Shown piece by piece: positions 2,668 to 17,029 of a stretch of 25,324 nt of DNA. Both the position numbers and the translations under genes were made by a program. Under the pieces are notes generated by a model. That model saw nothing but the letters and a program-made list of their open reading frames with translations. It was not told the DNA's origin and made no database searches. This DNA is from a phage. The stretch lies in the NCBI GenBank assembly GCA_015694865.1, contig GCA_015694865.1_3933.1; one strand, 5' to 3'. How positions within the stretch are numbered: the first letter of the stretch is position 1; each line of letters opens with the position of its first letter.

Positions 2668-3146
2668 TTTTTAATACCCTTCTTAGTAGAAATTTTATAA
2701 GCAAGGTTATCTCTTAAGTCACCTGTCTCAACAAGAGGTGCGTTAAAGCCTTTTTTCTTGACTGTGGAAGGTGCGTTAGGAGGGAGGATAGCAGAATTAC
2801 CAAAACCCCTTTTAATTACCTTTTGAGTATTCTTTGCAAATGCTTCTAAGGTATTTGAAGGGTCTGTGTTGAGACTGCTAAGTTGCTTATATAGATTCTT
2901 CTTAGTCTGCTCTAACAAGGTCTGTTTGTTTAGCATCATAGTGATTTCAAACAACCTACGATATACTTTACCAGAAGCTGAAGGAACCCCAATAACTTCT
3001 TGTAAATACATTAAAGCAGGATAAGAAAAACCAGAGCTATGTTGACCTTGTTCTTGAAAATACCCAACTTGAGCATTAGCCGTCTGCAAGTTCTTCATAG
3101 CCCCGACTAATTTTGCTCTAGCGGGGTGAATAACCCTTTTAACCAT
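2664..3146 (-). CDS. hypothetical head-tail joining/minor structural protein
   Basis: 160 aa ORF in a co-oriented operon; no specific motif recognised. Confidence 0.5.
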   Translation of the reverse strand: MVKRVIHPARAKLVGAMKNLQTANAQVGYFQEQGQHSSGFSYPALMYLQEVIGVPSASGKVYRRLFEITMMLNKQTLLEQTKKNLYKQLSSLNTDPSNTLEAFAKNTQKVIKRGFGNSAILPPNAPSTVKKKGFNAPLVETGDLRDNLAYKISTKKGIKK

Positions 3147-3595
3147 TATTCATCTCGCTCGATAATAAATACGCCATTAACACGGTTGCAGTAATCTCTG
3201 CCTTCGTATCTGGCAGCATCACCATATTCTGTGTATTTCTTGACAGAGCAAGGATTTTGACGACGCATGTCAATATCACACTGATTAATACCACCTGCAT
3301 AGGGTAGTCCTGAAACAGAGCTTTTAACAAGGTCGTCATAAACAGCTTTCAGAGACTTGAATCTGGAAGAGTTACGTAAATAAACACCACCAACCTTCTC
3401 ATCTCCCATCTTGGCTACTTGAAAGAGTAAATATTTAAGAGCTTTGATGGCTGCTTTCTTTTCATCCTTTCCAGATTCTAGATAGAACCACTCTAGCACA
3501 GACTGTTCAATAAGAATTTCGTCATTATTGGTGTCTGTGCAGAGGATTCTTACTCTATCAAGAGGGTTATTGGCTGGGTCGCCTGTATAACACAT
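3146..3595 (-). CDS. hypothetical virion protein
   Basis: 149 aa ORF immediately downstream of the major capsid gene. Confidence 0.5.
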   Translation of the reverse strand: MCYTGDPANNPLDRVRILCTDTNNDEILIEQSVLEWFYLESGKDEKKAAIKALKYLLFQVAKMGDEKVGGVYLRNSSRFKSLKAVYDDLVKSSVSGLPYAGGINQCDIDMRRQNPCSVKKYTEYGDAARYEGRDYCNRVNGVFIIERDE

Positions 3596-3616: not shown

Positions 3617-4720
3617 TTAGTTTTGAGCGTCAGCACGAACATCTACCAGCAACTGAGGACGAGTACAGTATGGCAGCATGTAAGAGTGAGCTTCGAAGTC
3701 AATACCTTCGTCACGGTCTTTTTCGTATTCGAATACGTATAGTTCCTGACCAAGTGTATTTGCATAACCCATCTTAGGACATGGGCCGTATGCAACTTCA
3801 AAGATGTTGTTAGCTTCACCCAACATAGATACGTTAGGGAAAGCGTGCCCTACACCAACGCCTACACCAGCATCATCAATGTTAACCAGAGTGTGAACCT
3901 TACCACGCTTGTCTTTAAACTTACCGTTATACTGGACAAACTTAACGCCACCGTAGTAGAAAGTGTTCATGTGAGCCTGAACGCCGTCGGCACCACCAGT
4001 TCTCAGAGAACCAGTAATCTGTTGCCAAGCCAGTGGAGTCTGCTGTGCAAGATAAGCGTCACGAATCTTAGGATGCTTAACCAGTTTGCTGAAGAATACA
4101 CGGTCAACAACTACGTGAATCTCTTCACCGTTGATTACAGTGCCAGTCTTAGCTTCATCTTCCATGTGCATACGCAGTTCTTCAATAGAAGCGTCGATGT
4201 CAGCATTAGGGTTGTCAAGGTCGAAGTAAATAGTCTTCTTCCTAACGTCGAACTGCTTGTACAGGTCAGCGTACAGAGTACCACGAGCATCAACAACTTT
4301 ACCCTTCAGAGCTTGCATAAACAGGAACTCACGAGTAATATCGAACTTGGTACGAATCTTCATCAGCTTCTTGGCACGTACTACAGCTTCAGTAGTCAGT
4401 TCGTTTGCAGTGCCTGGCTGACGTACACCCTGAATCTCATCAGGAGTAATGCTTTCAACTTCTTTGAAGTACATCATTGGGAAGCTGATTTGACGAACAC
4501 GCTCAGGTGCGCTAGTCTCTGCTTTACGGCTATCACGGTCTACCGCATCAAGCAAGCTAACATCCCAATCAGTCAAGTCCATAAGGAAAGTAGTTTGGGT
4601 GATTGGTGCTGAACGGAATAGACCTAAGTTGGAAATATACCCATAAGTATTTGGGATAGACTGGACTTCACCAGTCAGGTCAGCAAGGAAAAATCTGCTT
4701 TTTTCAGAATTAGTCAACAT
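3617..4720 (-). CDS. major capsid protein (lambda gpE-like family)
   Basis: 367 aa ORF following the protease and decoration-like genes; size and gene order match lambda-like head modules. Confidence 0.7.
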   Translation of the reverse strand: MLTNSEKSRFFLADLTGEVQSIPNTYGYISNLGLFRSAPITQTTFLMDLTDWDVSLLDAVDRDSRKAETSAPERVRQISFPMMYFKEVESITPDEIQGVRQPGTANELTTEAVVRAKKLMKIRTKFDITREFLFMQALKGKVVDARGTLYADLYKQFDVRKKTIYFDLDNPNADIDASIEELRMHMEDEAKTGTVINGEEIHVVVDRVFFSKLVKHPKIRDAYLAQQTPLAWQQITGSLRTGGADGVQAHMNTFYYGGVKFVQYNGKFKDKRGKVHTLVNIDDAGVGVGVGHAFPNVSMLGEANNIFEVAYGPCPKMGYANTLGQELYVFEYEKDRDEGIDFEAHSYMLPYCTRPQLLVDVRADAQN

Positions 4721-4753: not shown

Positions 4754-5131
4754 TTACAGGCCAGTTGGTACGAAATCAATACCTTTAGCAGCAAGAGCTG
4801 TCTTGACTGCACCAGCATCAACATCTGATTTAAGAGTAAGCAGGTCTTTTAGTTCTGCGTCACGGTAAATACCAACAACTTTCAACTGACCGTGGTAAGA
4901 CAGTTGTTGGTCTGCGTAAAAGTTAACGATACATACAGAATCAGCCTGATCTTCTTCCCCTACTGCAACTTTAGTACCATCTGCTTTCAGGACTTCACCT
5001 ACACGGTATTCTATTGAAGCAACTGGAGTGTACTCTTTGCGAGAGTGACCTGTTGGGGTAACCTGTTCCCAAAGAATGATATCATTCAGAGGTTCTCTTT
5101 TAACTAAGTGAGTAAAACCTTTATATGCCAT
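4754..5131 (-). CDS. head decoration-like protein (putative)
   Basis: 125 aa ORF between protease/scaffold and major capsid genes, the position of lambda gpD-type decoration proteins; sequence similarity not verified. Confidence 0.45.
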   Translation of the reverse strand: MAYKGFTHLVKREPLNDIILWEQVTPTGHSRKEYTPVASIEYRVGEVLKADGTKVAVGEEDQADSVCIVNFYADQQLSYHGQLKVVGIYRDAELKDLLTLKSDVDAGAVKTALAAKGIDFVPTGL

Positions 5132-5142
5132 TATTGTGTTCC

Positions 5143-6489
5143 TTATTTGATAAGAGATTTTAGAGCATTCTGGAGAGCCAGTTTGCGTTGTTCAGCGGTG
5201 TCTTCGGAAGCATTCTTAGCTGGTTCTTTTTCTTCTTCAACCAAATCAGCTTCGCCGTCATTACCCATTTCTTCCATAGCATTAGAATGTTCAAGAACAG
5301 CACCAGCAGTTTCTTTCAGCTTGGTAATTTCTGATTCTTTTTCTTCCATTGCAGAAGCATGGGACGCGATAGTTTCATTAAGTTTCTGGTTAGCACCTTC
5401 CATAGCATTCATAAACAGAACGCTCAGAGGGTTATCAAGACCAGCACCTAAAATAGTCGTTGCAGCTTCTTTTGCATCAAACCCAAAAGCTTCAGCAGAA
5501 GCAGAAATCTTATTAGTCAAATCTGACAAAGCAGCTTCCTGTTCTTTAGCTTTCATTTGAGCAACCTGAAGACGCAAAGCTTCTAGTTCTTGCTTTTCTT
5601 GTTCAGTCATTTCTTCACCTGAATTGTTAACGTTTAAACTTACAGGAGCCTCTTCAGAACCTTGTAAGTAATTTAAGAAATCATCTTGAGACATGATTGA
5701 GTTAATTAAACCAAGTTCAAGAGCTTCCTGAGCAGAATAAACATTCGCCTCAGTATTCTTTACAGCTTCTTCAGAGAGTTTACGAGATTCGGCTACAAAA
5801 CCTGTAAAGGTTGCGTAGGTATCATTAATTCTCTTTTGAAGTCTTTCTTTGCTTTCTTCTGAGAGTGCTTGGAATGGTGAACCCATCCCTTTAAATTCAC
5901 CAGCTTTAATGACGTTAATTGTTACGCCATTCTTTTCAAATGCCTTAGTTAATTCCTGATGAACCATAATTACACCAATAGAACCAACATCTGCATCTGG
6001 TGATGCAATAATTTCTTCAGCAGAAGATGCAAGAGCGTATGCAGCGGAACAAGCGAACTCATCTACATAAGCAATAATTTTCTTTTGGCCTCTTGAAGCC
6101 ATAATGTGACGTGCTAATTCAAAGCAACCTGAAGCTTCACCACCACCAGAATCGATGTGCAGAACAATAGTCTTGATTGACTCATCTGCTAAAGCTTCGT
6201 CAAAGCCTCTACGCAAACCTTCATAAGAGCTTAATCCACCTGTACACATTGCATCAATGAATGTCATACGATGGGTTAAACCACCCATAATAGGGATAAT
6301 AGCAATGTCATCTTTTACTTTTAAAAGACTTCTTGCTTCACCTTTGGGTTTATCAAAGTTTACTGCTGCTTGGACATCACCCAGCAATCTGTTATTCACA
6401 TAAGTTGCTGCTGAGTGAGCTAATGATTCAGTGGCTAGTAAAGGTTGGTTGAATAATCTATCAGCAAGTCTGAAGATATTCGAACTCAT
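5143..6489 (-). CDS. prohead protease, S49 (SppA/ClpP-like) family, with C-terminal scaffold-like coiled-coil extension
   Basis: 448 aa; S49-type core (…HIDSGGGEASGCFELARHI…IAYVDEFACSAAYALAS…VGSIGVIM…) followed by an E/K/A/Q-rich helical tail. Confidence 0.8.
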   Translation of the reverse strand: MSSNIFRLADRLFNQPLLATESLAHSAATYVNNRLLGDVQAAVNFDKPKGEARSLLKVKDDIAIIPIMGGLTHRMTFIDAMCTGGLSSYEGLRRGFDEALADESIKTIVLHIDSGGGEASGCFELARHIMASRGQKKIIAYVDEFACSAAYALASSAEEIIASPDADVGSIGVIMVHQELTKAFEKNGVTINVIKAGEFKGMGSPFQALSEESKERLQKRINDTYATFTGFVAESRKLSEEAVKNTEANVYSAQEALELGLINSIMSQDDFLNYLQGSEEAPVSLNVNNSGEEMTEQEKQELEALRLQVAQMKAKEQEAALSDLTNKISASAEAFGFDAKEAATTILGAGLDNPLSVLFMNAMEGANQKLNETIASHASAMEEKESEITKLKETAGAVLEHSNAMEEMGNDGEADLVEEEKEPAKNASEDTAEQRKLALQNALKSLIK

Positions 6490-8815: not shown

Positions 8816-10432
8816 TCAACGTCTAAGCCCCTCATATGGGTTTCCTCTCACTAAATCTGTGTGAGCACCCATTGATGGTGGCTTGAATAATTTAACTTCG
8901 TTAAGACTGTTGAAAGCATCACTGGTAGCATCCACTTGGTCATCTTTAGTTTTACCGTCACCACAAAAGCCTTCAAGTTCTTGAAAGTAAGCTTCATTCC
9001 AACTACCTCTCAAGACTTTTACAAGTCCAGCTTCAGAAGCAGCAGAAAATCCCGCAAAGCGGGTAACTTTATCTTTATTTGTTGGTTTGGCTCTTGCTCG
9101 ATAACCTTTCTCGGCAAGTTTCCTGATGAGGGATGTTGCGTAGGATTTACCAGCAGCGCCTGGGTCTTGAGGGATAAAAATACCAGTTCGCTTACCGTCA
9201 CTTTCAGCAGTCAAATTAATTTGTGTTTCGACTCCAGAGGGTCTATCTCTAAATCTTACTACATCAATGATATAATAGCAACCGTCTTTTTTAGATTTAC
9301 CCATCTTAACACCTGCTGTCCAGTCTGGATTAGGGTTAATCTCAGATGGTAAAGTTGCTGCTAAGTCCCATGCTCTAACATCAAATACATCTTCTGGGAG
9401 TGAATCAACAATTTCACACCATTGTCTTTGCCAATAGTTTGAACCTTCTGCACGAGCCTTCCAGTTACCGAAACGAAGTCTTGCAACGTTTACAGGAGTG
9501 TTGTTTTCCAACTTACCACGGTACTTAGGCTCTAAGAAGTCAAGGATTGGGTTATCATCAATCGTACCAGAGATGAAGGTGTATGTTTGAGGAATCTCAA
9601 GAGGGAACATTTCAAGAATCTTGTCTCTCTCCCAATCAGAAACCATCACACCATCATTCATTACATACCAACGAATACGACCACACTTTTCAGGGTCTGG
9701 ATAACCTTCTTCGTCTAAGAATGGTTCTACCCAATCGTAAATAAAGTGGTCTCTATCTGGGTTCATGGAAATCTTCATGTATGAATCGCCTTCAGCACCA
9801 GAACGTAGACGGGTTTGTAGGTATGAAATCTGTGAAGCAGAGAAGTGTGTACCTTCGTCAAAGTAAATAGCTGAGTATTCAATACCCTGATGACCTTCAG
9901 CGTGCTTTTCAAGTTCTAGGTAGGTAAACTTGATAGTTGCCCCAGAAGGGAATGTGATAGTCATTTTCTGCTCGTGAGGAATCCCACCAAACTTACCAAA
10001 TAGTTTCTTTGCAGCAGGCCATAAACCACCTTGTAACTGTGTTGTATTTCGACGGAAATATACAGCATTATAGTTAGGGTCTTCAATAAATCTTAAAGAG
10101 TCCATTAACAATGCGGCAGTCTTACCAGCACCAGCAGCACCACCATAGAGAACCAAGTCAGCATTAGTATTTAAAAAGACCTCTTGAGAACCCGGCTGAG
10201 GGGCTACATAGTTCTTATCAGTCATCAATTTAAAGATAAGGCGAACTTGGTCTGGTGTGTATCTTAATAAAGTCAGAATTTGAGTTGGAAGGAATTTAGA
10301 GGGGTCTTTACCGAATGATTTAATAATTTCTTTTACTTCATCAGAAAGCCCCAACTCTCCAGCTAGGACTTTCCTAACATCTTCCACTCGCTTCTGCTTA
10401 ACAGCATTTAAGTCCATTAAGCGCCTCCGCAA
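8816..10432 (-). CDS. terL: terminase large subunit
   Basis: 538 aa; N-terminal Walker A (VLYGGAAGAGKTAALL), Walker B-like (IYFDEGTHF) and a C-terminal nuclease-like region. Confidence 0.85.
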   Translation of the reverse strand: MRRRLMDLNAVKQKRVEDVRKVLAGELGLSDEVKEIIKSFGKDPSKFLPTQILTLLRYTPDQVRLIFKLMTDKNYVAPQPGSQEVFLNTNADLVLYGGAAGAGKTAALLMDSLRFIEDPNYNAVYFRRNTTQLQGGLWPAAKKLFGKFGGIPHEQKMTITFPSGATIKFTYLELEKHAEGHQGIEYSAIYFDEGTHFSASQISYLQTRLRSGAEGDSYMKISMNPDRDHFIYDWVEPFLDEEGYPDPEKCGRIRWYVMNDGVMVSDWERDKILEMFPLEIPQTYTFISGTIDDNPILDFLEPKYRGKLENNTPVNVARLRFGNWKARAEGSNYWQRQWCEIVDSLPEDVFDVRAWDLAATLPSEINPNPDWTAGVKMGKSKKDGCYYIIDVVRFRDRPSGVETQINLTAESDGKRTGIFIPQDPGAAGKSYATSLIRKLAEKGYRARAKPTNKDKVTRFAGFSAASEAGLVKVLRGSWNEAYFQELEGFCGDGKTKDDQVDATSDAFNSLNEVKLFKPPSMGAHTDLVRGNPYEGLRR

Positions 10433-10438
10433 ATAGAA

Positions 10439-10639
10439 TTATTCAGAGTCTGTAGCAGTCTCTTCTTTTTTAACTTCGAACTTTTCATCAACAGCATCAA
10501 GAAGTGCATCCATAGATGCTTCTTTAATATCAATACCTGTTGCTACAGATAATCTATCTGCAATTGCCATGATAGTGTTCTGCATAAATTCTAGCTTTTT
10601 ATTAGCTTCATAAAGTTCTTTGTAAACGGTCTCACTCAT
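10439..10639 (-). CDS. small hypothetical protein upstream of terL
   Basis: 66 aa acidic ORF; GGAGA RBS upstream of the ATG. Confidence 0.4.
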   Translation of the reverse strand: MSETVYKELYEANKKLEFMQNTIMAIADRLSVATGIDIKEASMDALLDAVDEKFEVKKEETATDSE

Positions 10640-10764: not shown

Positions 10765-10824
10765 AAAAAAGCCCTGTCTAAAAATACTCTTCGGTAGCGA
10801 AAGGAAGAATACTTATAGCAGGGC
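10765..10824 (-). terminator. stem-loop plus U-tract downstream of tRNA-Cys (terminator or processing structure)
   Basis: GCCCTG (10771-10776) pairs with CAGGGC (10819-10824); minus strand has TTTTTT directly after the stem; an inner ttcg/cgaa hairpin sits in the large loop. Confidence 0.4.
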
Positions 10825-10861: not shown

Positions 10862-10937
10862 TGGAGAATCCGAAGGGACTCGAACCCTTATAAACCTGTT
10901 TTGCAGACAGGCACATAGCCATTTCTGTCACGGATTC
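10862..10937 (-). tRNA. tRNA-Cys (anticodon GCA)
   Basis: 76 nt on reverse complement; acceptor GAATCCG/CGGATTC, T-arm AAGGG-TTCGAGT-CCCTT, anticodon loop CTGCAAA, CCA encoded. Confidence 0.8.
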
Positions 10938-10941
10938 AAAT

Positions 10942-11034
10942 TGGAGGAAGATACCAGACTTGAACTGGTACACCGATTTCTCAGCTACTGGCAGTTTAGC
11001 AAACTGCTCCCTTACCTTTTAGGGTTAATCTTCC
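10942..11034 (-). tRNA. tRNA-Ser (anticodon GCT), class II long variable arm
   Basis: 93 nt; acceptor GGAAGAT/ATCTTCC, anticodon stem GCAGT/ACTGC with loop TTGCTAA, about 21-nt variable arm, T-arm ACCAG-TTCAAGT-CTGGT, CCA encoded. Confidence 0.75.
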
Positions 11035-11035
11035 A

Positions 11036-11770
11036 TTATTTCTGTAATGCGTTCTTCATTTCTGGTGTTGCAATAGTGTCAATTACACCAGTTTTACAGG
11101 CATCATCAAACCAGTCTGGTAAGATACCTGCTAAGAACCCATTGATATTCGTTTTAAGGTACTCTGCAATAAGGGCAGCTTCTTCTTCAATCATCTGCAC
11201 AACTTCATCTGCATAAGCTGTAATCTTTGAGATACCTTCATTAATCTTACTGACAGCTTGGTTAGCTAAATCAGAAACAGTATCAAGACCCTTGTCAATA
11301 GCGTCTTGTAAGTCACTTAATACATCGTTAACACTCTCTAGTGTACTGTTAATCGTATCAATAGCTTTTTGACCATATTCTGTAGCAACACCCATAATAC
11401 CACTGAACGGTGTACAACCAACTTGTTCTCCTGCTGCACCCATAACATTGGAATATCCCTTTGCTACCTGCATACGTGATGAAAACTCATCAATAGATTT
11501 TTGACCGTAGTCTGTCAGGGTCTTAGTAGTTGCTGTAGTGCTTGTAAGGCTTGTTGTAAAGCTGTTTAGAAGGATTGTTGTAAGTCCAGCAGCAACAAGT
11601 TTCTCCTGCATTGTAGGGTCTGTTACAGAACTAATAGAGCTTACAAGTGATGTAGAAGCAGCTACGGTTCCACCGAGAACTGCTGCACCAGTAATAAGTG
11701 GGTTAGAAAACCCTTTACCGGTTTTTAAGAGATTAAAAATCTCCTTACCTTGTTCTGTCATCTCTTTCAT
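11036..11770 (-). CDS. hypothetical protein with N-terminal hydrophobic segment and long helical C-terminal region, embedded in the tRNA array
   Basis: ORF 11036..11833 trimmed to the internal Met at 11770 (AAAGG RBS) because the longer start would overlap tRNA-Phe; hydrophobic stretch LITGAAVLGGTVAASTSLVSSI. Confidence 0.5.
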   Translation of the reverse strand: MKEMTEQGKEIFNLLKTGKGFSNPLITGAAVLGGTVAASTSLVSSISSVTDPTMQEKLVAAGLTTILLNSFTTSLTSTTATTKTLTDYGQKSIDEFSSRMQVAKGYSNVMGAAGEQVGCTPFSGIMGVATEYGQKAIDTINSTLESVNDVLSDLQDAIDKGLDTVSDLANQAVSKINEGISKITAYADEVVQMIEEEAALIAEYLKTNINGFLAGILPDWFDDACKTGVIDTIATPEMKNALQK

Positions 11771-11786
11771 TAAGCACCTTTGAAAT

Positions 11787-11863
11787 TGGTAGTCCAGTGG
11801 GATTTGAACCCTCTTCTCATGTTTTTCAGACACGCGCTTTAACCATATAAGCTACTTGGACTA
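11787..11863 (-). tRNA. tRNA-Phe (anticodon GAA), acceptor/D-arm register ambiguous
   Basis: T-arm GAGGG-TTCAAAT-CCCAC, anticodon stem CGTGT/ACATG with loop CTGAAAA; the acceptor can pair as TAGTCCA/TGGACTA or a shifted register, so the ends are +/-2 nt. Confidence 0.55.
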
Positions 11864-11868
11864 TAAAT

Positions 11869-11944
11869 TGGGGTGACCTACGGGATTTGAACCCGTATAG
11901 ACCATGTTCACAGCATGGGTCATTACCATTTATGATAAGGCCAC
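11869..11944 (-). tRNA. tRNA-His (anticodon GTG)
   Basis: 76 nt; acceptor GTGGCCT/AGGTCAC, D-stem TCAT/ATGA, anticodon stem CCATG/CATGG with loop CTGTGAA, T-arm ACGGG-TTCAAAT-CCCGT, discriminator C, CCA encoded. Confidence 0.8.
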
Positions 11945-11975
11945 ATTTAAGGACTCTCGTAAGAACCCTTAGAAG

Positions 11976-12051
11976 TGGCAGCGGCATAAGGATTTGAACC
12001 TTAATAGGACAGCTTCAGAGACTGTTGCATTGCCAGTTATGCTATACCGCT
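11976..12051 (-). tRNA. tRNA-Gln (anticodon CTG)
   Basis: 76 nt; acceptor AGCGGTA/TGCCGCT, D-stem GCAT/ATGC, anticodon loop CTCTGAA, T-arm TAAGG-TTCAAAT-CCTTA, CCA encoded. Confidence 0.75.
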
Positions 12052-12056
12052 AAATT

Positions 12057-12135
12057 TGGTACTCCATATCGGATTCGAACCGATACATAACACAGATTTT
12101 AAGTCTGGCCTCTCTGCCAATTGGAGTAATGGAGC
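12057..12135 (-). tRNA. tRNA with Leu-type anticodon TAA but short variable region (atypical; isotype uncertain)
   Basis: 79 nt; acceptor GCTCCAT/ATGGAGT, T-arm ATCGG-TTCGAAT-CCGAT, best anticodon loop CTTAAAA on a 4-bp stem; no class II long arm. Confidence 0.5.
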
Positions 12136-12137
12136 AT

Positions 12138-12213
12138 TGGTGGGGGATGTTGGAATTGAACCAACTTCTTCGATTTCAAAGACCGAGGTTTTAACCTTGT
12201 AAACTAATCCCCT
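12138..12213 (-). tRNA. tRNA-Gln (anticodon TTG)
   Basis: 76 nt; T-arm GTTGG-TTCAATT-CCAAC, D-stem GTTT/AAAC, anticodon stem TCGGT/ATCGA with loop CTTTGAA; position 1-72 is an A-C mismatch. Confidence 0.7.
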
Positions 12214-12221
12214 TTAAATCT

Positions 12222-12779
12222 TTACTTTCTCAGTGGATGAATAAAGAATGCCAACATAACTCTTTCCCTTGAGAATGCTCTTTCTTCTGGGACAACACTT
12301 TTTAGTTTCCATCCAATATAAATTCTCCAGTAAAACTGTTTACCAAAGACTTTAATTGATGGGATAAAAGCGAATAATCCCCAAGCATTACTGTTCCACA
12401 TTAGGAGATAACCTGTCTGATTATCTTCAGGGTCAGAACTTACGTTGATATTACCTTTCCACTTAGTAACATCTTTTACATCTCTTCCTAATACATGGTA
12501 AGAGAAGTTATAGGCTTTGTTTCTCCAGAGCCATCCGACTCTCTGCATGTAGACACCCAGCTTACCAATCTTTCTAATCTTAGCCCATCGTTCGATATGA
12601 CCTTCGTCACCATCAATTGGGTTGTCATATGTCTCCATCCATCTAAATCCGAAAGGTAAGTGGCCTTTCTTCTCACTGTAAAATGGAACTACGAAAGGTG
12701 CTAAGATAACTGCTAAGGTTGCTGCTAATGGTTCTAGCAAAGCTAGGAAAATCCATGAAGCATATTTTAAATATCTCAT
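12222..12779 (-). CDS. hypothetical membrane-anchored protein embedded in the tRNA array
   Basis: 185 aa ORF; N-terminal hydrophobic helix (ASWIFLALLEPLAATLAVILAPFVVPF), Trp-rich soluble part; coupled to the upstream small ORF. Confidence 0.5.
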   Translation of the reverse strand: MRYLKYASWIFLALLEPLAATLAVILAPFVVPFYSEKKGHLPFGFRWMETYDNPIDGDEGHIERWAKIRKIGKLGVYMQRVGWLWRNKAYNFSYHVLGRDVKDVTKWKGNINVSSDPEDNQTGYLLMWNSNAWGLFAFIPSIKVFGKQFYWRIYIGWKLKSVVPEERAFSRERVMLAFFIHPLRK

Positions 12780-13018
12780 CGTCTAATCCTTGTAAGGAGA
12801 TAAATGTTATTATTCGTTTCTAAACCTTCTGGTAAAACTGTCTCAAAAATAACACTCTTTAGCTGTCTACCACCAAAACAATCACGTATAAATCTTTCTA
12901 CTCTAGCGGGGTCACATAAGTACCCTACTTTTAAGAAAATGTGGTGTTCAACACCAATGACCCTGACAAACTCAATATTCTCACAGTTTTCATGTTCAAC
13001 TACTGTTAATGTTTGCAT
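12776..13018 (-). CDS. hypothetical small protein (coupled to 12222..12779)
   Basis: 80 aa ORF; its stop overlaps the start of the downstream ORF (ATGA). Confidence 0.4.
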   Translation of the reverse strand: MQTLTVVEHENCENIEFVRVIGVEHHIFLKVGYLCDPARVERFIRDCFGGRQLKSVIFETVLPEGLETNNNIYLLTRIRR

Positions 13019-13035
13019 AGTATCACCTTTTTATC

Positions 13036-13111
13036 TGGCGCAGGATAAGGGATTCGAACCCCTATTAACAGCTTCGTAGACTGTTGCTCTATCCATTTGA
13101 ACTAATCCTGC
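13036..13111 (-). tRNA. tRNA-Arg (anticodon ACG)
   Basis: 76 nt; acceptor GCAGGAT/ATCCTGC, D-stem GTTC/GAGC, anticodon loop CTACGAA, T-arm AGGGG-TTCGAAT-CCCTT, CCA encoded. Confidence 0.8.
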
Positions 13112-13116
13112 AAAAT

Positions 13117-13194
13117 TGGTGTTCCAAGACGGATTCGAACCGTCACTAATACAAGGTTTGAGCTTACATCCTCTGCCAATTGGGATACTGGAAC
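13117..13194 (-). tRNA. tRNA with Leu-type anticodon CAA but short variable region (atypical; isotype uncertain)
   Basis: 78 nt; acceptor GTTCCAG/TTGGAAC, T-arm GACGG-TTCGAAT-CCGTC, D-loop AATTGGCAGAG shared with the 12057..12135 gene, anticodon loop CTCAAAC. Confidence 0.5.
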
Positions 13195-13195
13195 A

Positions 13196-13269
13196 TGGTA
13201 CTCACTAAAGGACTTGAACCTTTTCTTCATCTTGTAAGGGTGATGTTTTACCATATAAACTAAGCGAGT
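13196..13269 (-). tRNA. tRNA-Val (anticodon TAC)
   Basis: 74 nt; acceptor ACTCGCT/AGTGAGT, D-stem GTTT/AAAC, anticodon loop CTTACAA, T-arm AAAGG-TTCAAGT-CCTTT, CCA encoded; short variable loop. Confidence 0.65.
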
Positions 13270-13364
13270 GTGAAAGAGGTCTGAAGTTGTGCCGCTAACT
13301 CAACTCCGTGGAATTTGTTACGGTCTTCAGTTGACACCAGCGGTCTTTCACTTGACCTCTGAAT

Positions 13365-13441
13365 TGGTGCTGCTCACAGGACTCGAACCCGCATTTCCAT
13401 CCTTACAAGGGATGTGTAATAGCCAATTATACGAAAGCAGC
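13365..13441 (-). tRNA. tRNA-Thr (anticodon TGT)
   Basis: 77 nt; acceptor GCTGCTT/GAGCAGC, anticodon stem CATCC/GGATG with loop CTTGTAA, T-arm GCGGG-TTCGAGT-CCTGT, CCA encoded. Confidence 0.75.
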
Positions 13442-13448
13442 ATTAATT

Positions 13449-13524
13449 TGGAGCATCCAGAGGGAATCGAACCCTCAACCTCAGTTTGGAAGACTGTAAT
13501 TTTCCCGTTTAAACTATGGATGCA
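13449..13524 (-). tRNA. tRNA-Gly (anticodon TCC)
   Basis: 76 nt; acceptor GCATCCA/TGGATGC, anticodon loop CTTCCAA, T-arm GAGGG-TTCGATT-CCCTC, CCA encoded. Confidence 0.7.
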
Positions 13525-13529
13525 CTAAT

Positions 13530-13605
13530 TGGTGGAGAAGCAGGGAATTGAACCCTGTACTTAAGTTTGCAAAACTTATGTTTTAACCATGTAAACTACA
13601 TCCCC
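13530..13605 (-). tRNA. tRNA-Ala (anticodon TGC)
   Basis: 76 nt; G3-U70 wobble pair in the acceptor stem (Ala identity element), anticodon stem TAAGT/ACTTA with loop TTTGCAA, T-arm CAGGG-TTCAATT-CCCTG, CCA encoded. Confidence 0.75.
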
Positions 13606-13611
13606 AATGTA

Positions 13612-13687
13612 TGGTACAGGTGGAGGGAATTGAACCCATCGTCTTACTGATTAAGAGTCAGCCGCATAACCATTTTGCTACACCTGC
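13612..13687 (-). tRNA. tRNA-Lys (anticodon CTT)
   Basis: 76 nt; acceptor GCAGGTG/CACCTGT, anticodon stem GCTGA/TCAGT with loop CTCTTAA, T-loop TTCAATT, CCA encoded. Confidence 0.7.
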
Positions 13688-13694
13688 ATTAATT

Positions 13695-13772
13695 TGGTAG
13701 GAGACAAGGGATTCGAACCCTCAAACACCAACTTCTAAGGATGGTAGGTTTACCAATTACCGTCAATCTCCC
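13695..13772 (-). tRNA. tRNA with Leu-type anticodon TAG but short variable region (atypical; isotype uncertain)
   Basis: 78 nt; acceptor GGGAGAT/GTCTCCT, T-arm GAGGG-TTCGAAT-CCCTT, anticodon loop CTTAGAA on stem CCATC/GTTGG; D-arm poorly paired. Confidence 0.45.
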
Positions 13773-14028
13773 ATTAAATCTTTTTAGAGAACTTCTAAGA
13801 ACCTAAGCAACAAGGTTCCACAACAAGCTGTAATAACCTTAGAAGCCCTCTAAAAAGACCTAAAAAGGTCTTTGCATAGTCTTGTTTAATCCGGTGACTA
13901 GAACCTTTGGAGAGCTTGATATTATCTCTTCTCCGTGACACCTACTAGGTGCTTTACTGTGCTTGTACGACAATACACGAGGGATACCAAAGCAACATCC
14001 GAATGAAGCTTGGCTTTAAACCTTATTA

Positions 14029-14118
14029 GGCGGTAAGTAAAGGAGTCGAACCCTCACCGTATCTCTACAGTGGCAACTGTTTTCAAGACAGTTTGGCTAC
14101 CATTAGCCGCTACCTACC
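14029..14118 (-). tRNA. tRNA-Ser (anticodon TGA), class II
   Basis: About 88 nt; acceptor GGTAGGT/ACTTACC, D-stem GGC/GCC, anticodon stem ACTGT/ACAGT with loop CTTGAAA, long variable arm, T-loop TTCGACT; only CC of CCA encoded. Confidence 0.7.
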
Positions 14119-14131
14119 CCTAATAAGACTT

Positions 14132-14214
14132 TGGCATGGGACGGAGGAGTTGAACCCCTTTGAAACGGTTTTGGAGGCCGTTGCTCATGCCTTAGAGTCT
14201 TAACATCGTCCCAT
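14132..14214 (-). tRNA. tRNA-Trp-like (anticodon CCA) with abnormally long D-region; possibly a tRNA-like ncRNA
   Basis: 83 nt; perfect 7-bp acceptor ATGGGAC/GTCCCAT, T-loop TTCAACT, anticodon arm ACGGC-CTCCAAA-ACCGT, but about 16 nt between the D-stem strands. Confidence 0.5.
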
Positions 14215-14356
14215 ATTATAATTCGAAGCTTACCGTATTATCTCAACACTGTAAAGCCCCTTCTCAGATTATTTACATGTTCTGGAAAACATGAGATACA
14301 GACCACCTCCCTACAGGAAGACCCGCTTAGGTCGTCTAAGTAATCTGCTAACTAAT

Positions 14357-14433
14357 TGGCACACCCTACAGGATTCGAACCTGTAACTAACGATTTAGAA
14401 GACCGTTGCTCTATCCAATTGAACTAAGGGTGC
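14357..14433 (-). tRNA. tRNA-Arg (anticodon TCT)
   Basis: 77 nt; acceptor GCACCCT/AGGGTGT, D-stem GTTC/GAGC, anticodon stem ACGGT/ATCGT with loop CTTCTAA, T-arm ACAGG-TTCGAAT-CCTGT, CCA encoded. Confidence 0.8.
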
Positions 14434-14636
14434 ATTAATCTTTAAAGACTCTCTTAGAAAGCCCTTAAAGATGCCCACCTTATTAATCATACCGTGGGCT
14501 AGTACGCCAAATTCTTTGATGAGGGATTGGAAGACCTCACTGGTGTTTAGCCTATCAAGCTACTGCCAGAAAAACATTGTCGTTTGCATTTATTTTAAAT
14601 TTGCAAAATAGACGCTACGCAACGAAAACTAAGGTT

Positions 14637-14665
14637 ACTATAAAGTAGTCACATCTCAATGTCAA
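14637..14665 (-). promoter_or_regulatory. sigma70-like promoter on minus strand (TTGACA-17 bp-TATAGT)
   Basis: Plus-strand tgtcaa at 14660-14665 and actata at 14637-14642 give, on the minus strand, -35 TTGACA, a 17-nt spacer and -10 TATAGT, pointing at tRNA-Arg(TCT) and downstream tRNAs. Confidence 0.55.
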
Positions 14666-14680
14666 CAACTTTATTGAAAT

Positions 14681-14756
14681 TGGTACTGGTAGGTGGAATC
14701 GAACCACCGATGTTCCCTTATCAGGGGAGTGTTATAACCTTCTTAACTATACCAGC
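14681..14756 (-). tRNA. tRNA-Ile (anticodon GAT)
   Basis: 76 nt; acceptor GCTGGTA/TACCAGT, D-stem GTTA/TAAC, anticodon loop CTGATAA, T-arm GGTGG-TTCGATT-CCACC, CCA encoded. Confidence 0.75.
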
Positions 14757-14757
14757 T

Positions 14758-14834
14758 TGGAGGTTCAGATGGGATTCGAACCCATCGCCTGTCAGATTAA
14801 AAGTCTGCCGCATCACCATTCTGCTACACTTCCA
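14758..14834 (-). tRNA. tRNA-Lys-like (anticodon TTT) with poorly paired acceptor stem (possible pseudo-tRNA)
   Basis: Paralogous in sequence to the 13612..13687 tRNA-Lys; good T-arm ATGGG-TTCGAAT-CCCAT and anticodon arm GCAGA-CTTTTAA-TCTGA, but acceptor strands GGAAGTG vs CTGAACC pair at only 3 of 7 positions. Confidence 0.45.
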
Positions 14835-14837
14835 TTA

Positions 14838-14981
14838 AATTATCTTTGTAGATAAGCTACCCAGACTTGCTTAATGTCTGTAGCGATGTGCCTTTTTGGG
14901 TTTAAATCTAGAATTTACCCTTTCACCCTTTGTGGTCGCATACTCACAGGTAAGCTTAATAACTTATCTACAAAGATAATT
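14838..14981. repeat. 19-bp perfect inverted repeat (14838-14856 / 14963-14981) flanking a 106-bp non-coding segment
   Basis: aattatctttgtagataag at 14838-14856 is the exact reverse complement of cttatctacaaagataatt at 14963-14981. Confidence 0.7.
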
Positions 14982-15030
14982 ACCAGACCGTTGTTTATCA
15001 TCTTAAGTGCTACCATTACACCAACTCGAC

Positions 15031-15080
15031 ATCTGCCGAGTGAAGGAATCGAACCTTCGCCTTTTCTTTACCGGAGAAAT
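15031..15080 (-). ncRNA. tRNA-like fragment (T-arm plus 3' acceptor strand without a pairing 5' strand)
   Basis: Reverse complement gives TTTCT-CCGGTAA-AGAAA, then GAAGG-TTCGATT-CCTTC-ACTCGGC; no complementary 5' acceptor strand or recognisable D-arm within about 80 nt upstream. Confidence 0.35.
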
Positions 15081-15120
15081 AGATTGTTTAAGTTTTGCTG
15101 AATACGGTCTTCTGCAAAAT

Positions 15121-15197
15121 TGGAGGCGGGTGCAGGAGTCGAACCTACCGATACCATGCTAATGAGACATGTGAGACGCCCTTTCTCTATACCCGCA
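15121..15197 (-). tRNA. tRNA-Met (anticodon CAT; elongator, initiator or Ile2 not distinguishable)
   Basis: 77 nt; T-arm GTAGG-TTCGACT-CCTGC, anticodon stem CATGT/GCATG with loop CTCATTA, acceptor ACCCGCC with a 1-72 T-C mismatch in the best register, CCA encoded. Confidence 0.6.
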
Positions 15198-15287
15198 ATT
15201 CTCAATGACCAGACCAAATATCTTCTTTGTCCGATTTCGTGTCAGATGAGTAGATTAAGTTTGCTGTAATTGGTCTTCTGTCAAAAC

Positions 15288-15365
15288 TGGCGTTCCAGAA
15301 GGGATTTGAACCCTCAGATATCCACTTTGAAAGAGTGGTGACTTTACCATTTTGTCTACTGGAAC
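15288..15365 (-). tRNA. tRNA-Glu (anticodon TTC)
   Basis: 78 nt; acceptor GTTCCAG/CTGGAAC, anticodon stem CCACT/AGTGG with loop CTTTCAA, T-arm GAGGG-TTCAAAT-CCCTT, CCA encoded. Confidence 0.7.
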
Positions 15366-15375
15366 ATTAATTTGT

Positions 15376-15449
15376 TCTCTGTTGGAGGACTTGAACCTCC
15401 GGCCTTACCGCCCCAAACGGAACGCTCTACCAAGCTGAGCTAAACAGAG
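15376..15449 (-). tRNA. tRNA-Pro (anticodon TGG)
   Basis: 74 nt without CCA; C1-G72 pair, D-arm TAGCTCAGCTTGGTAGAGC, anticodon loop TTTGGGG with G37, T-arm GGAGG-TTCAAGT-CCTCC. Confidence 0.75.
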
Positions 15450-15567
15450 ATAAACTTTTCAAACTCTATGTAACCACTTTAACATTATTTTTTAGTGGTT
15501 GTCAAGAACTTTTTTAAAATATTTTTCAGTATCTTAGAAAAGCTCTCATTTCGTTTCTATGTAGAAC

Positions 15568-15596
15568 ATATTAAAGGGTATCAAACACATTGTCAA
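15568..15596 (-). promoter_or_regulatory. sigma70-like promoter on minus strand (TTGACA-17 bp-TAATAT) upstream of the tRNA array
   Basis: Plus-strand tgtcaa at 15591-15596 and atatta at 15568-15573 give, on the minus strand, -35 TTGACA, a 17-nt spacer and -10 TAATAT; the -35 sits in the loop of a 9-bp inverted repeat (aaagggtat/ataccctt). Confidence 0.5.
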
Positions 15597-15614: not shown

Positions 15615-17029
15615 TTACCAGATGTAACGGTCAATCATTACTGCTTTGAGCATTACACTGATTGGGTCAAACTTCTCACCACCAAGCAGAGCTTTTAAAG
15701 TAGCTGGAGAAAAACCAGATACCATTGCTACACCGTTATCCTTAACAGACACTTCGCAAGTACCATTACGGTTTGCTAAGTACCAGAATACCAGTTGAGG
15801 CATTTCGTATCCAGCTTTTTTGTACTTACTCTGAATTGCTTCAAAGTTTGTACGACCGTTAGCTCCATCAACCTGATTGAACTCCATATCGGAGAAGATG
15901 ATAAGCTTACTTGCATGTCTTTCTTAGTCAAGTTGTTTCTCTTACCTACCTCAAGAATCCGGTCAAAAGCTGCTTGTAAGTTAGTTGAGCCATATTCAAC
16001 ATGTCGCATCACCTGACGATGACGGTTTCGTAAATCACCACTCAGTTCGATGAAGTGAGGGTTTGTTGAATAAACCATTAACTCATCCTTAAAGCAACCT
16101 GTATTGCGTTCTGCTACATACAAGGCAAGGGATACACCAATATCAAGGGCAGTGATTGAACCAAGATTCACCCAAGACATTGAGCTTGAAACATCAGTCA
16201 TACACAAGATGTTTTCACCTTCTGCCATCCAGTTTGGTAGTGCTTTCCACTGCTCATTGGCAACATCTGCATTACCATGCTTGATAGACTTAATCACATC
16301 GTATGGGTAAACAGCACCAGCGTTAATCTTAGTCTCACCTTTTGATAAGGACTCAATGTAAGCTTTGTAACGTTCTCCATCCTTACGGTTAAACAGTTTT
16401 TGGTAACGTGCAGCAGCAAGTGAAGGAGTCTTACTGTAGTCAATCTTACCAAACTCATTAGCAGAGATTTTTTGCTCAACTGTATCAGATAGTGCAGACA
16501 ACAGTGTGCGGTACTCTTTCTCACTCAAGTTGGCAAACTTGCAGAAACGTTTTACAAACTGCTTATGACGTGGTTTGACTCGTGGTAACCACTTAGCCGC
16601 CAAACCTGCTGTTGCAGGTTCTAGTAATGCTGCTTCTAGATGTTTGAAGGCATCTGTCTCGAAACGAGTACCTACGAAGATTTTGAAGTCATCAAAACGA
16701 CCAAGTTCTGCAATCTTATCCATAATGCGAAGAACCTGCGTAGGCTCTAAAACTTTGTCTTCAATCGCTTGAAGTAAAACAGTTCTGAAGGCTTTACGCT
16801 CACCCATACCTTCTCGTACATCTCGCATATGAAGCAAAATACGAACTGCAACATCAACATCCTCACGCAAAGCTTTGTAGAACAGGTCTGGTAAGATTTC
16901 TACGTTGCTACGGCTTGAACCAGCAGCTTTGTAAAAGTCTACAAGAGCAGACATTGATGAAGTATGGTTTACAGCACCATTTTCAGTTCGACCTGCATGA
17001 AGGTGCGCATGTTTAAATAATTCGCTCAT
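15615..17029 (-). CDS. Ro60-like vWA-domain protein, interrupted by an apparent frameshift near 15885-15926
   Basis: Two overlapping minus-strand ORFs (15776..17029 and 15615..15887) in different frames; MIDAS-like TDVSSSM motif in the first; the second frame reads ...HASKLIIFSDMEFNQ..., typical of the end of a vWA fold. Ro60-like (DUF2828-type) assignment is from memory. Confidence 0.6.

Follow-up and report, generated by a model that had tools for sequence, protein, structure and literature searches.

The transfer RNA (tRNA) gene arrays of Felix O1-like phages are the closest described counterparts of the locus reported here. Felix O1 was reported in 2010 to carry 22 tRNA genes (PMC3185647), genomes of the genus Felixounavirus carry 17-23 each (PMC8300805), and the Moogle-like phage Sf14 encodes 26 tRNAs for 19 amino acids (PMC12482277). 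The clusters of phages T4 and T5 belong to an unrelated lineage with another gene order; they are likewise co-oriented clusters of virulent coliphages, with short spacers, mostly encoded CCA ends and processing by host enzymes, and have been proposed to serve codon supplementation and, for T5, defence evasion. What sets the Felix O1-type array apart from these clusters is its trio of tRNALeu whose variable regions are short, and a Trp gene whose D arm is aberrant. The 25,324-nucleotide (nt) phage DNA analysed here (GenBank assembly GCA_015694865.1, contig GCA_015694865.1_3933.1; hereafter the window) carries a tRNA island on its minus strand at 10862-15450, interspersed with three small open reading frames (ORFs), structured spacers and a transfer-messenger RNA (tmRNA)-like RNA. 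Similarity and gene order identify the interval as the tRNA gene array conserved among Felix O1-like myoviruses, here in a member of the genus Felixounavirus. The island itself is thus an already-known feature of a size normal for its group, and the window holds a new, partly degraded allele. What is new is the cause of its missing isotypes, a broken Lys chimera, a hidden Trp-like gene revealed by covariation and a widespread, unannotated tmRNA-like RNA. We favour, with a probability of roughly 0.6, the account that this conserved array would be transcribed and processed by the host, supplement the host tRNA pool and sustain late protein synthesis.

Searches with the 4.7-kb interval matched 302 phage records, 219 of them with a single match covering at least 80% of the query, and the best matches were Felixounavirus genomes with 97-98% identity over 100% of the 4.7 kb. 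The array is bordered by a terminase and a small ORF on one side and, on the other, by a DUF2828 ('RNA-binding protein') gene on the same strand. The same layout was found in Felix O1, ASO1A, VSe102, SUSP1, Moogle and Sf13. The flanking features are as follows.

8816-10432: terminase-like ORF flanking the array
10439-10639: small ORF flanking the array on the terminase side
15615-17029, minus strand: DUF2828/DUF7788 ORFs on the other, upstream flank

ARAGORN runs on eight relatives from three genera (Felixounavirus, Suspvirus and Mooglevirus) gave a single invariant gene order: Pro, Glu, Met, Asn, Tyr, Asp, Lys(UUU), Met, Ile, Arg(UCU), Ser(UGA), Leu(UAG), Lys(CUU), Ala, Gly, Thr, Val, Leu(CAA), Arg(ACG), Gln(UUG), Leu(UAA), Gln(CUG), His, Phe, Ser(GCU) and Cys. 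The window has exactly this order minus its deleted genes. Felix O1 and the other arrays of Ounavirinae (wV8, Moogle, Sf13/Sf14 and SUSP1) share its locus, flanks, order, promoters and spacers, with 95-98% nucleotide identity to Felixounavirus genomes; however, Asn, Tyr, Asp and the second Met are missing from the window copy, whose Lys(UUU) gene is a Lys/Met fusion. By contrast, it retains a canonical tRNA-Arg(UCU), which is absent or replaced in Felix O1, ASO1A, FSL SP-012 and VSe102. The first-pass annotation of this DNA, made without database searches, had described a large tRNA island with an unusually large complement. The island is indeed large, but the complement is ordinary, because it has been known since 2010, follows one gene order across three Ounavirinae genera and has a count typical of the genus (17-23 tRNAs in the genus, 22 in Felix O1 and 21-26, in the same order, in each of the relatives analysed). 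On its own, it adds one more allele of a familiar array.

ARAGORN called 22 tRNA genes, all on the minus strand, and Rfam at the gathering score of RF00005 recovered 21 of them with 33-63 bits; the missed gene, Met at 15121-15197, fell below the cut-off and was called by ARAGORN alone. In Felix O1, this Met gene also has a low Cove score of 28.9 (PMC3185647). With the tRNA-Trp-like gene described below, the total is 23 minus-strand genes. Neither program found a tRNA gene in the rest of the window, nor one for Asn, Asp or Tyr anywhere in it. Besides the Lys/Met fusion and the Trp-like gene, the array consists of the following genes.

15373-15449, minus strand: tRNA-Pro(UGG), called by ARAGORN and Rfam (57.7 bits), 3' end ACA
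15288-15365, minus strand: tRNA-Glu(UUC), ARAGORN and Rfam, CCA encoded, ATTAAT leader
15121-15197, minus strand: atypical tRNA-Met(CAU), ARAGORN only, U1.C72 mismatch, U37
14681-14756, minus strand: tRNA-Ile(GAU), ARAGORN and Rfam (62.3 bits)
14357-14433, minus strand: tRNA-Arg(UCU), ARAGORN and Rfam (62.8 bits), ATTAAT leader, reads AGA
14028-14118, minus strand: tRNA-Ser(UGA), ARAGORN and Rfam (33.2 bits), long variable arm, CCU end (CCA incomplete)
13695-13772, minus strand: tRNA-Leu(UAG), ARAGORN and Rfam, short variable region
13612-13687, minus strand: tRNA-Lys(CUU), ARAGORN and Rfam, ATTAAT leader
13530-13605, minus strand: tRNA-Ala(UGC), ARAGORN and Rfam, G3.U70
13449-13523, minus strand: tRNA-Gly(UCC), ARAGORN and Rfam
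13365-13441, minus strand: tRNA-Thr(UGU), ARAGORN and Rfam, ATTAAT leader
13196-13269, minus strand: tRNA-Val(UAC), ARAGORN and Rfam
13117-13194, minus strand: tRNA-Leu(CAA), ARAGORN and Rfam, short variable region, A73
13036-13111, minus strand: tRNA-Arg(ACG), ARAGORN and Rfam
12138-12213, minus strand: tRNA-Gln(UUG), ARAGORN and Rfam
12057-12135, minus strand: tRNA-Leu(UAA), ARAGORN and Rfam, 7-nt variable loop, A73, D loop like that of E. coli tRNALeu
11976-12051, minus strand: tRNA-Gln(CUG), ARAGORN and Rfam
11869-11944, minus strand: tRNA-His(GUG), ARAGORN and Rfam, encoded G-1 opposite C73
11787-11862, minus strand: tRNA-Phe(GAA), ARAGORN and Rfam
10942-11034, minus strand: tRNA-Ser(GCU), ARAGORN and Rfam, long variable arm
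10862-10937, minus strand: tRNA-Cys(GCA), ARAGORN and Rfam, final gene of the array

These calls bear out the earlier count of about two dozen minus-strand tRNA genes: the anticodon set agrees with the isotypes listed then, with Trp as the 23rd gene, and the hand-built folds behind that list largely hold, as software confirms 22 of them and covariation supports the Trp-like gene that software misses. The organizational details held as well. CCA, said to be present in nearly all genes, is encoded in 21 of 23, the exceptions being Pro (ACA) and Ser(UGA) (CCU); the Pro and Ser tRNA genes of phage T4 likewise have no encoded CCA. Separations of 4-8 nt, described as frequent, occur at 9 of 22 junctions, and three further junctions measure 1-2 nt. 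A conserved ATTAAT just 5' of the mature ends was found exactly at -6 to -1 of four tRNAs (Glu, Arg-UCU, Lys-CUU and Thr), whereas about eight other leaders are AU-rich one-off variants (ATTTAAT, ATTAGT, TTATAAT etc.); the whole window contains 17 copies of ATTAAT against 11.3 expected, and four at that exact register are far above chance. With one U34 tRNA for every four-codon box, the set is of minimal design.

Leu(UAG), Thr(UGU) and Ala(UGC) each occur as two alleles with 76-91% identity, distributed independently of genus; the Thr(UGU) gene of the window, for example, shares 77% identity with that of ASO1A and 96% with that of Sf13. This pattern implies that single tRNA genes may have been exchanged like cassettes.

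Alignment to ASO1A resolved the window copy into three colinear blocks, and therefore two deletions. The first, of ~69 nt, left the 5' portion of Lys(UUU) joined to the 3' portion of the adjacent Met(CAU) gene, which in relatives is a second Met(CAU) gene located 5 nt after Lys(UUU). The second removed 447 nt that hold Asp, Tyr and Asn in nearly all relatives. The features concerned are given below.

14758-14833, minus strand: chimeric Lys/Met pseudo-tRNA, the first ~60 nt from Lys(UUU) including the anticodon, the 3' end CUGAACC-U-CCA from Met
15092-15122, minus strand: junction of the 447-nt deletion, between two copies of the clamp repeat UUUGCAGAAGACCGUAUUCAGCAA
15007-15061, minus strand: tRNA remnants, comprising a T-arm with 3' strand (15033-15061) and a 5'-half-like piece (15007-15030)

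The Lys/Met crossover lies within the T-loop sequence GGGUUCGA shared by both genes. In the resulting acceptor stem (GGAAGUG/CUGAACC), three of the seven positions pair, and the chimera does not fold as a cloverleaf; nonetheless, both programs scored the chimera as tRNA-Lys (42.7 bits in Rfam). It is most likely a dead gene, and of the second Lys gene proposed by the first-pass annotation the UUU anticodon stands, but the intact gene does not. A junction-specific search always returned the Lys/Met junction split in two pieces among the top matches. The breakpoints of the 447-nt deletion lie inside two copies of a ~26-nt repeat, each of which forms the 5' half of a spacer clamp hairpin. Among 60 records sampled of 254, only VSe102, which lacks Asn, Tyr, Asp and Arg(ACG), shares this deletion. 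The absence of Asn, Asp and Tyr genes, noticed at first pass and confirmed by both programs, is thus due to a deletion between repeated spacer hairpins and is not a design feature. The tRNA remnants reach 22 bits with the Rfam tRNA model over model positions 7-64 and are found in relatives too.

Such lesions bear on a very different view of the island, in which much of it would be evolutionary debris left at a hotspot of recombination and homing endonucleases, where the gain, loss and breakage of tRNA genes would matter little to selection. The chimera, the remnants and the two deletions at repeats fit this view, together with the HNH endonuclease genes in the arrays of Felix O1 (three) and SUSP1, the alternative alleles in the Arg-UCU (ASO1A), Leu-UAG and Thr slots and the genus range of 17-23 tRNAs (PMC8300805). 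We nevertheless regard it as highly improbable: gene order and most tRNAs are 95-100% conserved over three genera, whereas the neighbouring protein gene is only 80-86% identical, compensatory changes preserve the stems, and codon-matched anticodons argue for selection on most genes. With Asn, Tyr, Asp, one Met and Lys-UUU missing or broken, the window copy is a useful natural knock-out that bears on the reliance of the phage on its own tRNAs.

In ASO1A, the Arg(UCU) slot (~5062-5142, minus strand) is occupied by a different tRNA-like RNA with the acceptor CGGGGCG/CGCCUCG-A-CCA and the anticodon loop CUUCUAA (UCU). It has nearly no D arm and a ~23-nt variable region, and was not called by any software. 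Its charging identity appears ambiguous, with a UCU anticodon on a long-variable-arm body.

The gene missed by both programs in the window is the Trp-like gene.

14132-14214, minus strand: non-canonical tRNA-Trp-like gene with acceptor AUGGGAC/GUCCCAU, G73, CCA and anticodon CCA

It possesses a perfect 7-base-pair acceptor stem, a normal T-arm and the anticodon loop CUCCAAA; its defect is a non-standard, invariant 10-nt linker GAUGUUAAGA between the acceptor and a 3-base-pair D stem. ARAGORN did not call it at the default, ps80 or ps70 thresholds, and the relaxed runs, which included one with introns allowed, gave only obvious false positives in the array gaps. In Rfam, it matched only tRNA-Sec, at 23 bits (E = 0.39). 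Nine distinct versions were aligned, taken from Felixounavirus, Mooglevirus and Suspvirus genomes and from a Yersinia phage without classification. Eight of the 19 pairs changed on both sides, in all four helices, compared to zero in slid controls; 99.4% of cells were paired, a percentage that is inflated by deriving the structure from the same sequences, whereas the compensatory changes are not. These changes support a four-helix cloverleaf, and the hand-built Trp fold at 14132-14214 thus corresponds to a real cloverleaf-type RNA, though a non-canonical one. The identity elements of E. coli tRNA-Trp are A1-U72, G73 and the anticodon CCA. The Trp-like gene carries all of them, and the anticodon is kept in all variants. 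We conclude that it is a real but non-canonical gene, whose RNA may be charged with Trp and used in translation.

The Trp-like element was found in 232 phage records, and none of the 60 listed has a tRNA annotation over it. SUSP1 has a different, shorter Trp-like allele, and in Erwinia phage phiEa21-4, which is more distant, the tRNA-Trp is ordinary and annotated. At loop positions 32 and 38, alternative alleles occur (CUCCAAA vs UUCCAAC). If the RNA is charged, the pan-array would cover all 20 amino acids instead of the published 19; if confirmed, the gene would have been missed by standard tools in at least 232 genomes, which alters the premise of published analyses that start from 19.

The function of the array was assessed by comparing 6,449 phage codons with a 14,748-codon E. 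coli sample. AGA is the most enriched codon (18.8-fold), accounting for 42% of phage Arg codons vs 2% in E. coli. It is followed by ACA (3.9-fold), CCA (2.8-fold), CUA and UCA (2.6-fold each), UUA (2.5-fold), GUA (2.0-fold), GCA (1.9-fold), GGA (1.85-fold), and AAG and CAA (1.6-fold each). Of the 23 anticodons, 11 are cognate to codons with a phage enrichment of 1.5-fold or more, and a like codon trend has been reported for Felix O1 (PMC3185647) and Sf14 (PMC12482277). Codon supplementation is the best-supported role of the array, albeit an incomplete one. The signals that would drive and end its transcription are listed below.

15568-15596, minus strand: sigma70-like promoter P1, TTGACA-17-TAATAT, upstream of the array, a 10/12 pattern match only
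15476-15505, minus strand: sigma70-like promoter P2, TTGACA-18-TAAAGT with TG, ~25 nt upstream of tRNA-Pro, a pattern match only
14637-14665, minus strand: sigma70-like internal promoter P3, TTGACA-17-TATAGT, an 11/12 match
10765-10824, minus strand: intrinsic terminator-like hairpin GCCCUG...CAGGGC plus U6 after tRNA-Cys (z = -6.4)

P3 is conserved in four Ounavirinae genera and annotated as a promoter in ASO1A. Felix O1 encodes no phage RNA polymerase (PMC3185647). In the favoured account, host RNA polymerase would start at the sigma70-like promoters and produce polycistronic precursors that end at the terminator after tRNA-Cys. Host RNase P would cut every tRNA 5' end, and exonucleases would trim the 1-7-nt AU-rich spacers back to the encoded CCA, with the CCA-adding enzyme additionally needed for Pro and Ser(UGA). 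The mature tRNAs would then top up the host pool for the A/U-ending codons favoured by a phage of 39-40% GC and keep late (structural) protein synthesis going as the host tRNA supply falls; a near-minimal set with one U34 tRNA per four-codon box would fit the decoding of almost the whole code.

Several observations weigh against this account. Roughly half of the tRNAs serve codons without enrichment in the phage (UGC 0.70, AUC 0.60, AGC 0.42, CGU 0.63, CAG 0.71 and AAA 0.78), so that codon supplementation alone cannot explain the full set and is ruled out as the sole explanation. Both the window phage and VSe102 lack Asn, Tyr and Asp, and these genes are therefore dispensable on some hosts at least; the natural loss of five tRNAs in the window phage argues against strict dependence on the full set. 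In addition, 14 of the 26 tRNAs of Sf14 were scored best by a non-cognate isotype model (PMC12482277), which makes the charging identities uncertain.

The tRNAs for non-enriched codons, left unexplained by codon bias in a pan-array that covers nearly every amino acid, might instead point to defence escape, in which phage tRNAs mainly replace host tRNAs cleaved or depleted by PrrC, PARIS AriB, retron-associated PtuAB or colicin-like enzymes, the phage copies being either resistant or pool-restoring. Precedents come from T5, whose tRNAs escape tRNA-targeting defences through changes in the anticodon loop (PMC10264068) and defeat retrons and other systems (PMC11555353), and whose tRNA-Lys neutralises PARIS (PMC11464382). 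The alternative alleles at loop positions 32 and 38 of the Trp-like gene would also suit such a role. However, a computational study of the same array in Sf14 concluded that the data exclude escape from anticodon nucleases (PMC12482277), and many Sf14 anticodon loops are the same as those of the host. Moreover, the window has lost or broken Tyr, Asn, Asp and Lys-UUU, including the Tyr and Lys species implicated in T5, and its phage thus manages without these tRNAs. Altogether, we consider defence escape an unlikely main function.

That Sf14 study instead concluded that the array makes translation largely host-independent (PMC12482277): in this 'all-destructive' model, host DNA and tRNA synthesis collapses, and a near-complete minimal set sustains late translation. 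The 26 canonical genes of the pan-array serve 19 amino acids, to which the Trp-like gene would add the 20th, and the single U34 tRNA per four-codon box agrees with such a set. We hold this model to be slightly more doubtful than defence escape. With Asn, Tyr, Asp and a functional Lys(UUU) missing from the window, and Asn, Tyr, Asp and Arg(ACG) from VSe102, both phages must still use host tRNAs. Supplementation of the host pool by a conserved array remains our preferred account.

Beyond its tRNAs, the array encodes an RNA related to tmRNA. In published surveys, the phages listed with ssrA are mycobacteriophages, Bacillus phage G and DS6A, which has the tRNA-like domain only (PMC4131195, PMC11915505). 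The RNA found here lies in the 247-nt gap from tRNA-Ile to tRNA-Arg(UCU), which opens with promoter P3, and has the following parts.

14434-14630, minus strand: tmRNA-like RNA
14618-14630, minus strand: 5' AGUUUUCG motif
14579-14596, minus strand: resume context
14552-14587, minus strand: tag ANDNVFLAVA followed by UGA UAG
14540-14569, minus strand: helix 5
14520-14539, minus strand: pseudoknot stem 1, whose loop CCAA (14527-14530) pairs with UUGG (14507-14510)
14473-14499 and 14438-14472, minus strand: hairpins

Past P3, the gap reads ...AGUUUUCGUUGCG...AAAAUAAAU GCA AAC GAC AAU GUU UUU CUG GCA GUA GCU UGA UAG, a tag frame that lacks a start codon, follows a conserved resume-codon context and closes with a stop. 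The tag of E. coli tmRNA is ANDENYALAA. Standard tools did not identify the RNA: the Rfam tmRNA models (RF00023, RF04321 and RF01850) gave 15.2 and 29.2 bits against a cut-off of 47, and the ARAGORN tmRNA search was negative.

Homologues were found in 602-775 phage records from unrelated groups. They comprise Ounavirinae including phiEa21-4, Ackermannviridae (Vi01 and CBA120), N4-like phages (IME11), Cyrano, HK620, SSU5 and several Klebsiella siphoviruses, as well as Carvaje and the IMG/VR loci L040, L046, L050, L058, L065, L072, L103, L105, L110, L113 and L138. We take Cyrano, a 108-kb phage, to be T5-like. Homologues also occur in 756 of 5,426 complete E. coli genomes, at 150 places on chromosomes and 657 on plasmids, and the plasmids among those listed are ~77-155 kb in size. 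The annotation under the matches is always 'none' or 'hypothetical protein'. Members of the family, annotated nowhere, are thus present in ~1.5% of the phage genomes on deposit and in 14% of the complete genomes of E. coli.

Comparison of 17 distinct homologous tags revealed that all comprise 10 codons plus a stop, with the consensus AN[DE]xx[FY]L[AM][VA]A. Leu7, Ala10 and the stop are invariant yet specified by different codons, and variability at third codon positions is about double that at positions 1 and 2. The stop codon is enclosed by helix 5, which is followed by a downstream pseudoknot, and 94.5% of cells in the alignment are paired. Among the 13 pairs of the core, 9 changed on both sides, including all four pseudoknot pairs, which read CCAA/UUGG in the window, CCAG/CUGG in Carvaje, CCGA/UCGG in Vi01 and CUCCA/UGGAG in L065. 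An independent covariance model built from non-Ounavirinae members only gave exactly one match in the window, at 14501-14603, with 100 bits and E of ~1e-18. The family model scores members at 95-118 bits, with one contig at 51, and genuine tmRNAs at 28-35; reciprocally, the Rfam search for permuted tmRNA recognised two genuine ones in viral contigs (124-130 bits) but not one of 16 family members. Comparative analysis thus shows a structured, conserved and tmRNA-derived RNA family.

The nearest described relative is the two-piece (circularly permuted) tmRNA of Betaproteobacteria and some viral contigs (RF04321/RF01850). They both possess the resume context AUAAAU|GCA AAC GA, a 10-codon tag ending in hydrophobic-Ala-X-Ala and a stop, a helix 5 enclosing that stop and a downstream H-type pseudoknot, and the tmRNA-like RNA has GUUUUCG where tmRNA has GGUUUCGAC. 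However, the tmRNA-like RNA lacks the acceptor strand, T-arm, CCA and G3:U70, and scores 15-29 bits compared to 124-130 for true permuted tmRNAs. For this RNA, no tRNA-like domain was found in the window that would supply a G3:U70 acceptor stem, a T-arm and a 3' CCA, whether contiguous or with the acceptor as a separate piece. The RNA starts a few nt after the promoter, at the position matching the D-loop motif of tmRNA, and the only 'acceptor' aligned by the permuted Rfam model is the T-arm of tRNA-Ile, with mismatched helices. A true two-piece tmRNA composed of tRNA-Ile and the downstream RNA was accordingly rejected: the connecting helices mismatch, a conserved promoter lies between the two, the 5' leader is unconserved, being interrupted by an 89-nt insertion in LF110P1, and tRNA-Ile lacks G3:U70. 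The reading of the tag as an ordinary small ORF was also discarded, as there is neither an in-frame start codon nor a Shine-Dalgarno sequence; the overlapping AUG frame ranges from 7 to 13 codons, and its variability would peak at the second codon position.

Mycobacteriophage tmRNAs (Bxz1 group) and DS6A are likewise phage-encoded derivatives of tmRNA, and DS6A carries one half only (PMC4131195, PMC11915505). The halves differ: DS6A keeps the tRNA-like half without a tag, whereas the family described here keeps the tag and pseudoknot half without a tRNA-like half, has enterobacterial hosts and is not on the published lists of ssrA phages. The codon-like variation suggests that the tag is decoded, which would need a tRNA-like partner in trans; a decoy or inhibitor role, or a decaying relic, is also possible. 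Somewhat short of even odds, we propose a large, undescribed tmRNA-derived family of enterobacterial phages and prophages, spread over Ounavirinae, Ackermannviridae, N4-like, T5-like, lambdoid/P22-like and SSU5-like elements and several Klebsiella siphoviruses, which lacks its own tRNA-like domain and whose tag would be decoded in infected cells via a separate tRNA-like partner or host tmRNA/SmpB, redirecting or re-tagging the products of ribosome rescue. Together with the island and its hidden tRNA-Trp, it might form a broader module for the takeover of translation. If confirmed, the RNA would offer a direct handle on whether ribosome rescue and protein tagging are manipulated by phages at all.

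A D-armless tRNA-like module directly abuts the core in contigs of lambdoid and Klebsiella type (seen in L113, L050, L058, L072 and Carvaje, in the ~100-200 nt on either side). It consists of AAGGGCAUUG, a GGCGAC hairpin, a T-arm and CAGUGCUCUU-U-CC[A], and sits inside repeated cassettes CACAACAGGTAAGAGCATT...AGTGCTCTTTCCGTTGTGG, which we take to be the lambda late-leader region. A related remnant of the module is present in phiEa21-4, and the T-arm remnant of the window at 15033-15061 is similar by eye. The module could be the missing acceptor piece, which we regard as a lead and not a result.

The three tRNALeu (UAA, CAA and UAG) are 78-79 nt long including CCA and have variable regions of 5-8 nt, without the long arm of bacterial type II tRNALeu. 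All carry A73, and the UAA and CAA species have AAUUGGCAGA D loops, features of the Leu type. They resemble the type I tRNALeu of Streptomyces coelicolor and mitochondria in the 5-8-nt variable region with A73 kept. The Streptomyces form, however, is not charged by E. coli leucyl-tRNA synthetase (LeuRS) (PMC6614811), whereas for the tRNALeu of Sf14 the Leu isotype model scores best (PMC12482277). The phage tRNALeu are putative substrates of the host LeuRS. Literature searches on short-arm phage tRNALeu, DUF2828 and phage tmRNA-like RNAs returned nothing directly relevant.

The remaining parts of the array are three ORFs and several structured spacers.

12776-13018, minus strand: ORF of 80 residues inside the array, phrog_14202, conserved
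12222-12779, minus strand: ORF of 185 residues between tRNA blocks, DUF7338/phrog_2143, conserved
11036-11770, minus strand: ORF of 244 residues between tRNA blocks, DUF7217/phrog_2114, conserved
15198-15287, minus strand: clamp hairpin of the Glu-Met spacer, 5' UUGACAGAAGACCAA pairing with 3' UUGGUCUGGUCA, interior different between genera
13274-13361, minus strand: conserved structured spacer between Thr and Val (z = -3.0), with a third GAAGACCGUAA motif
13774-13863, minus strand: very stable long hairpin just upstream of Leu(UAG) (z = -5.8), overlapping a small terminator-like hairpin AGACC/GGUCU plus U5

In the clamp hairpin, AGACCGU and ACGGUCU base-pair, and the sequence that they enclose varies. 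The hairpin belongs to a family located between tRNA blocks (15198-15287, 14980-15119 and 13274-13361, minus strand; 6309-6385 in ASO1A), in which 5' ...CAGAAGACC[GA]N... pairs with 3' ...N[CU]GGUCUGG... The motif GAAGACCRWWW occurs 5 times in the window, compared to 0.18 expected, and the clamps possibly play a role in processing. The 90-nt hairpin at 13774-13863 shows compensatory changes in SUSP1, Moogle and Sf13, and the Ser(UGA)-Leu(UAG) gap (13870-14027, minus strand) holds a hypervariable hairpin whose structure is kept. In LF110P1, this gap contains a 609-nt stretch, and the 89-nt insertion lies just after promoter P3. HNH homing endonuclease genes are annotated between tRNAs at 2900-3313, 4231-4623 and 5111-5596 of the Felix O1 locus and at 3627-4031 in SUSP1. 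Mobile insertions and the replacement of alleles recur in the array, which makes it a hotspot of both.

In every member of the Ounavirinae examined, the array is immediately preceded by a gene of PHROG 850, 'RNA-binding protein'. Its Pfam matches are DUF2828, DUF7788 and a weak vWA, and no PDB sequence or NCBIfam match was found. It was considered as a homologue of Ro60/TROVE, with the odd tRNA-like gene as its Y RNA; this idea is unsupported, because the protein has no TROVE match and the Trp-like RNA ends in G73-CCA as a tRNA does. In the window, a 1-nt deletion at ~15914 (ATG-CAAG vs ATGCCAAG in Felix O1 and VSe102) splits this 471-residue DUF2828/DUF7788 gene into ORFs of 417 and 90 residues, and is either a real frameshift or a sequencing error.

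Finally, a ~50-nt block at 14260-14310 (minus strand), GGAGGUGGUCUGUAUCUCAUGUUUUCCAGAACAUGUAAAUAAUCUGAGAAG, is invariant in nine sequences from three genera, a conservation that exceeds that of most tRNAs here. Within it lie a Shine-Dalgarno-like GGAGGU, a mini-ORF of 7 codons (MFSRTCK) and a hairpin CAUGUU/AACAUG, and the block is restricted to Ounavirinae (254 records).

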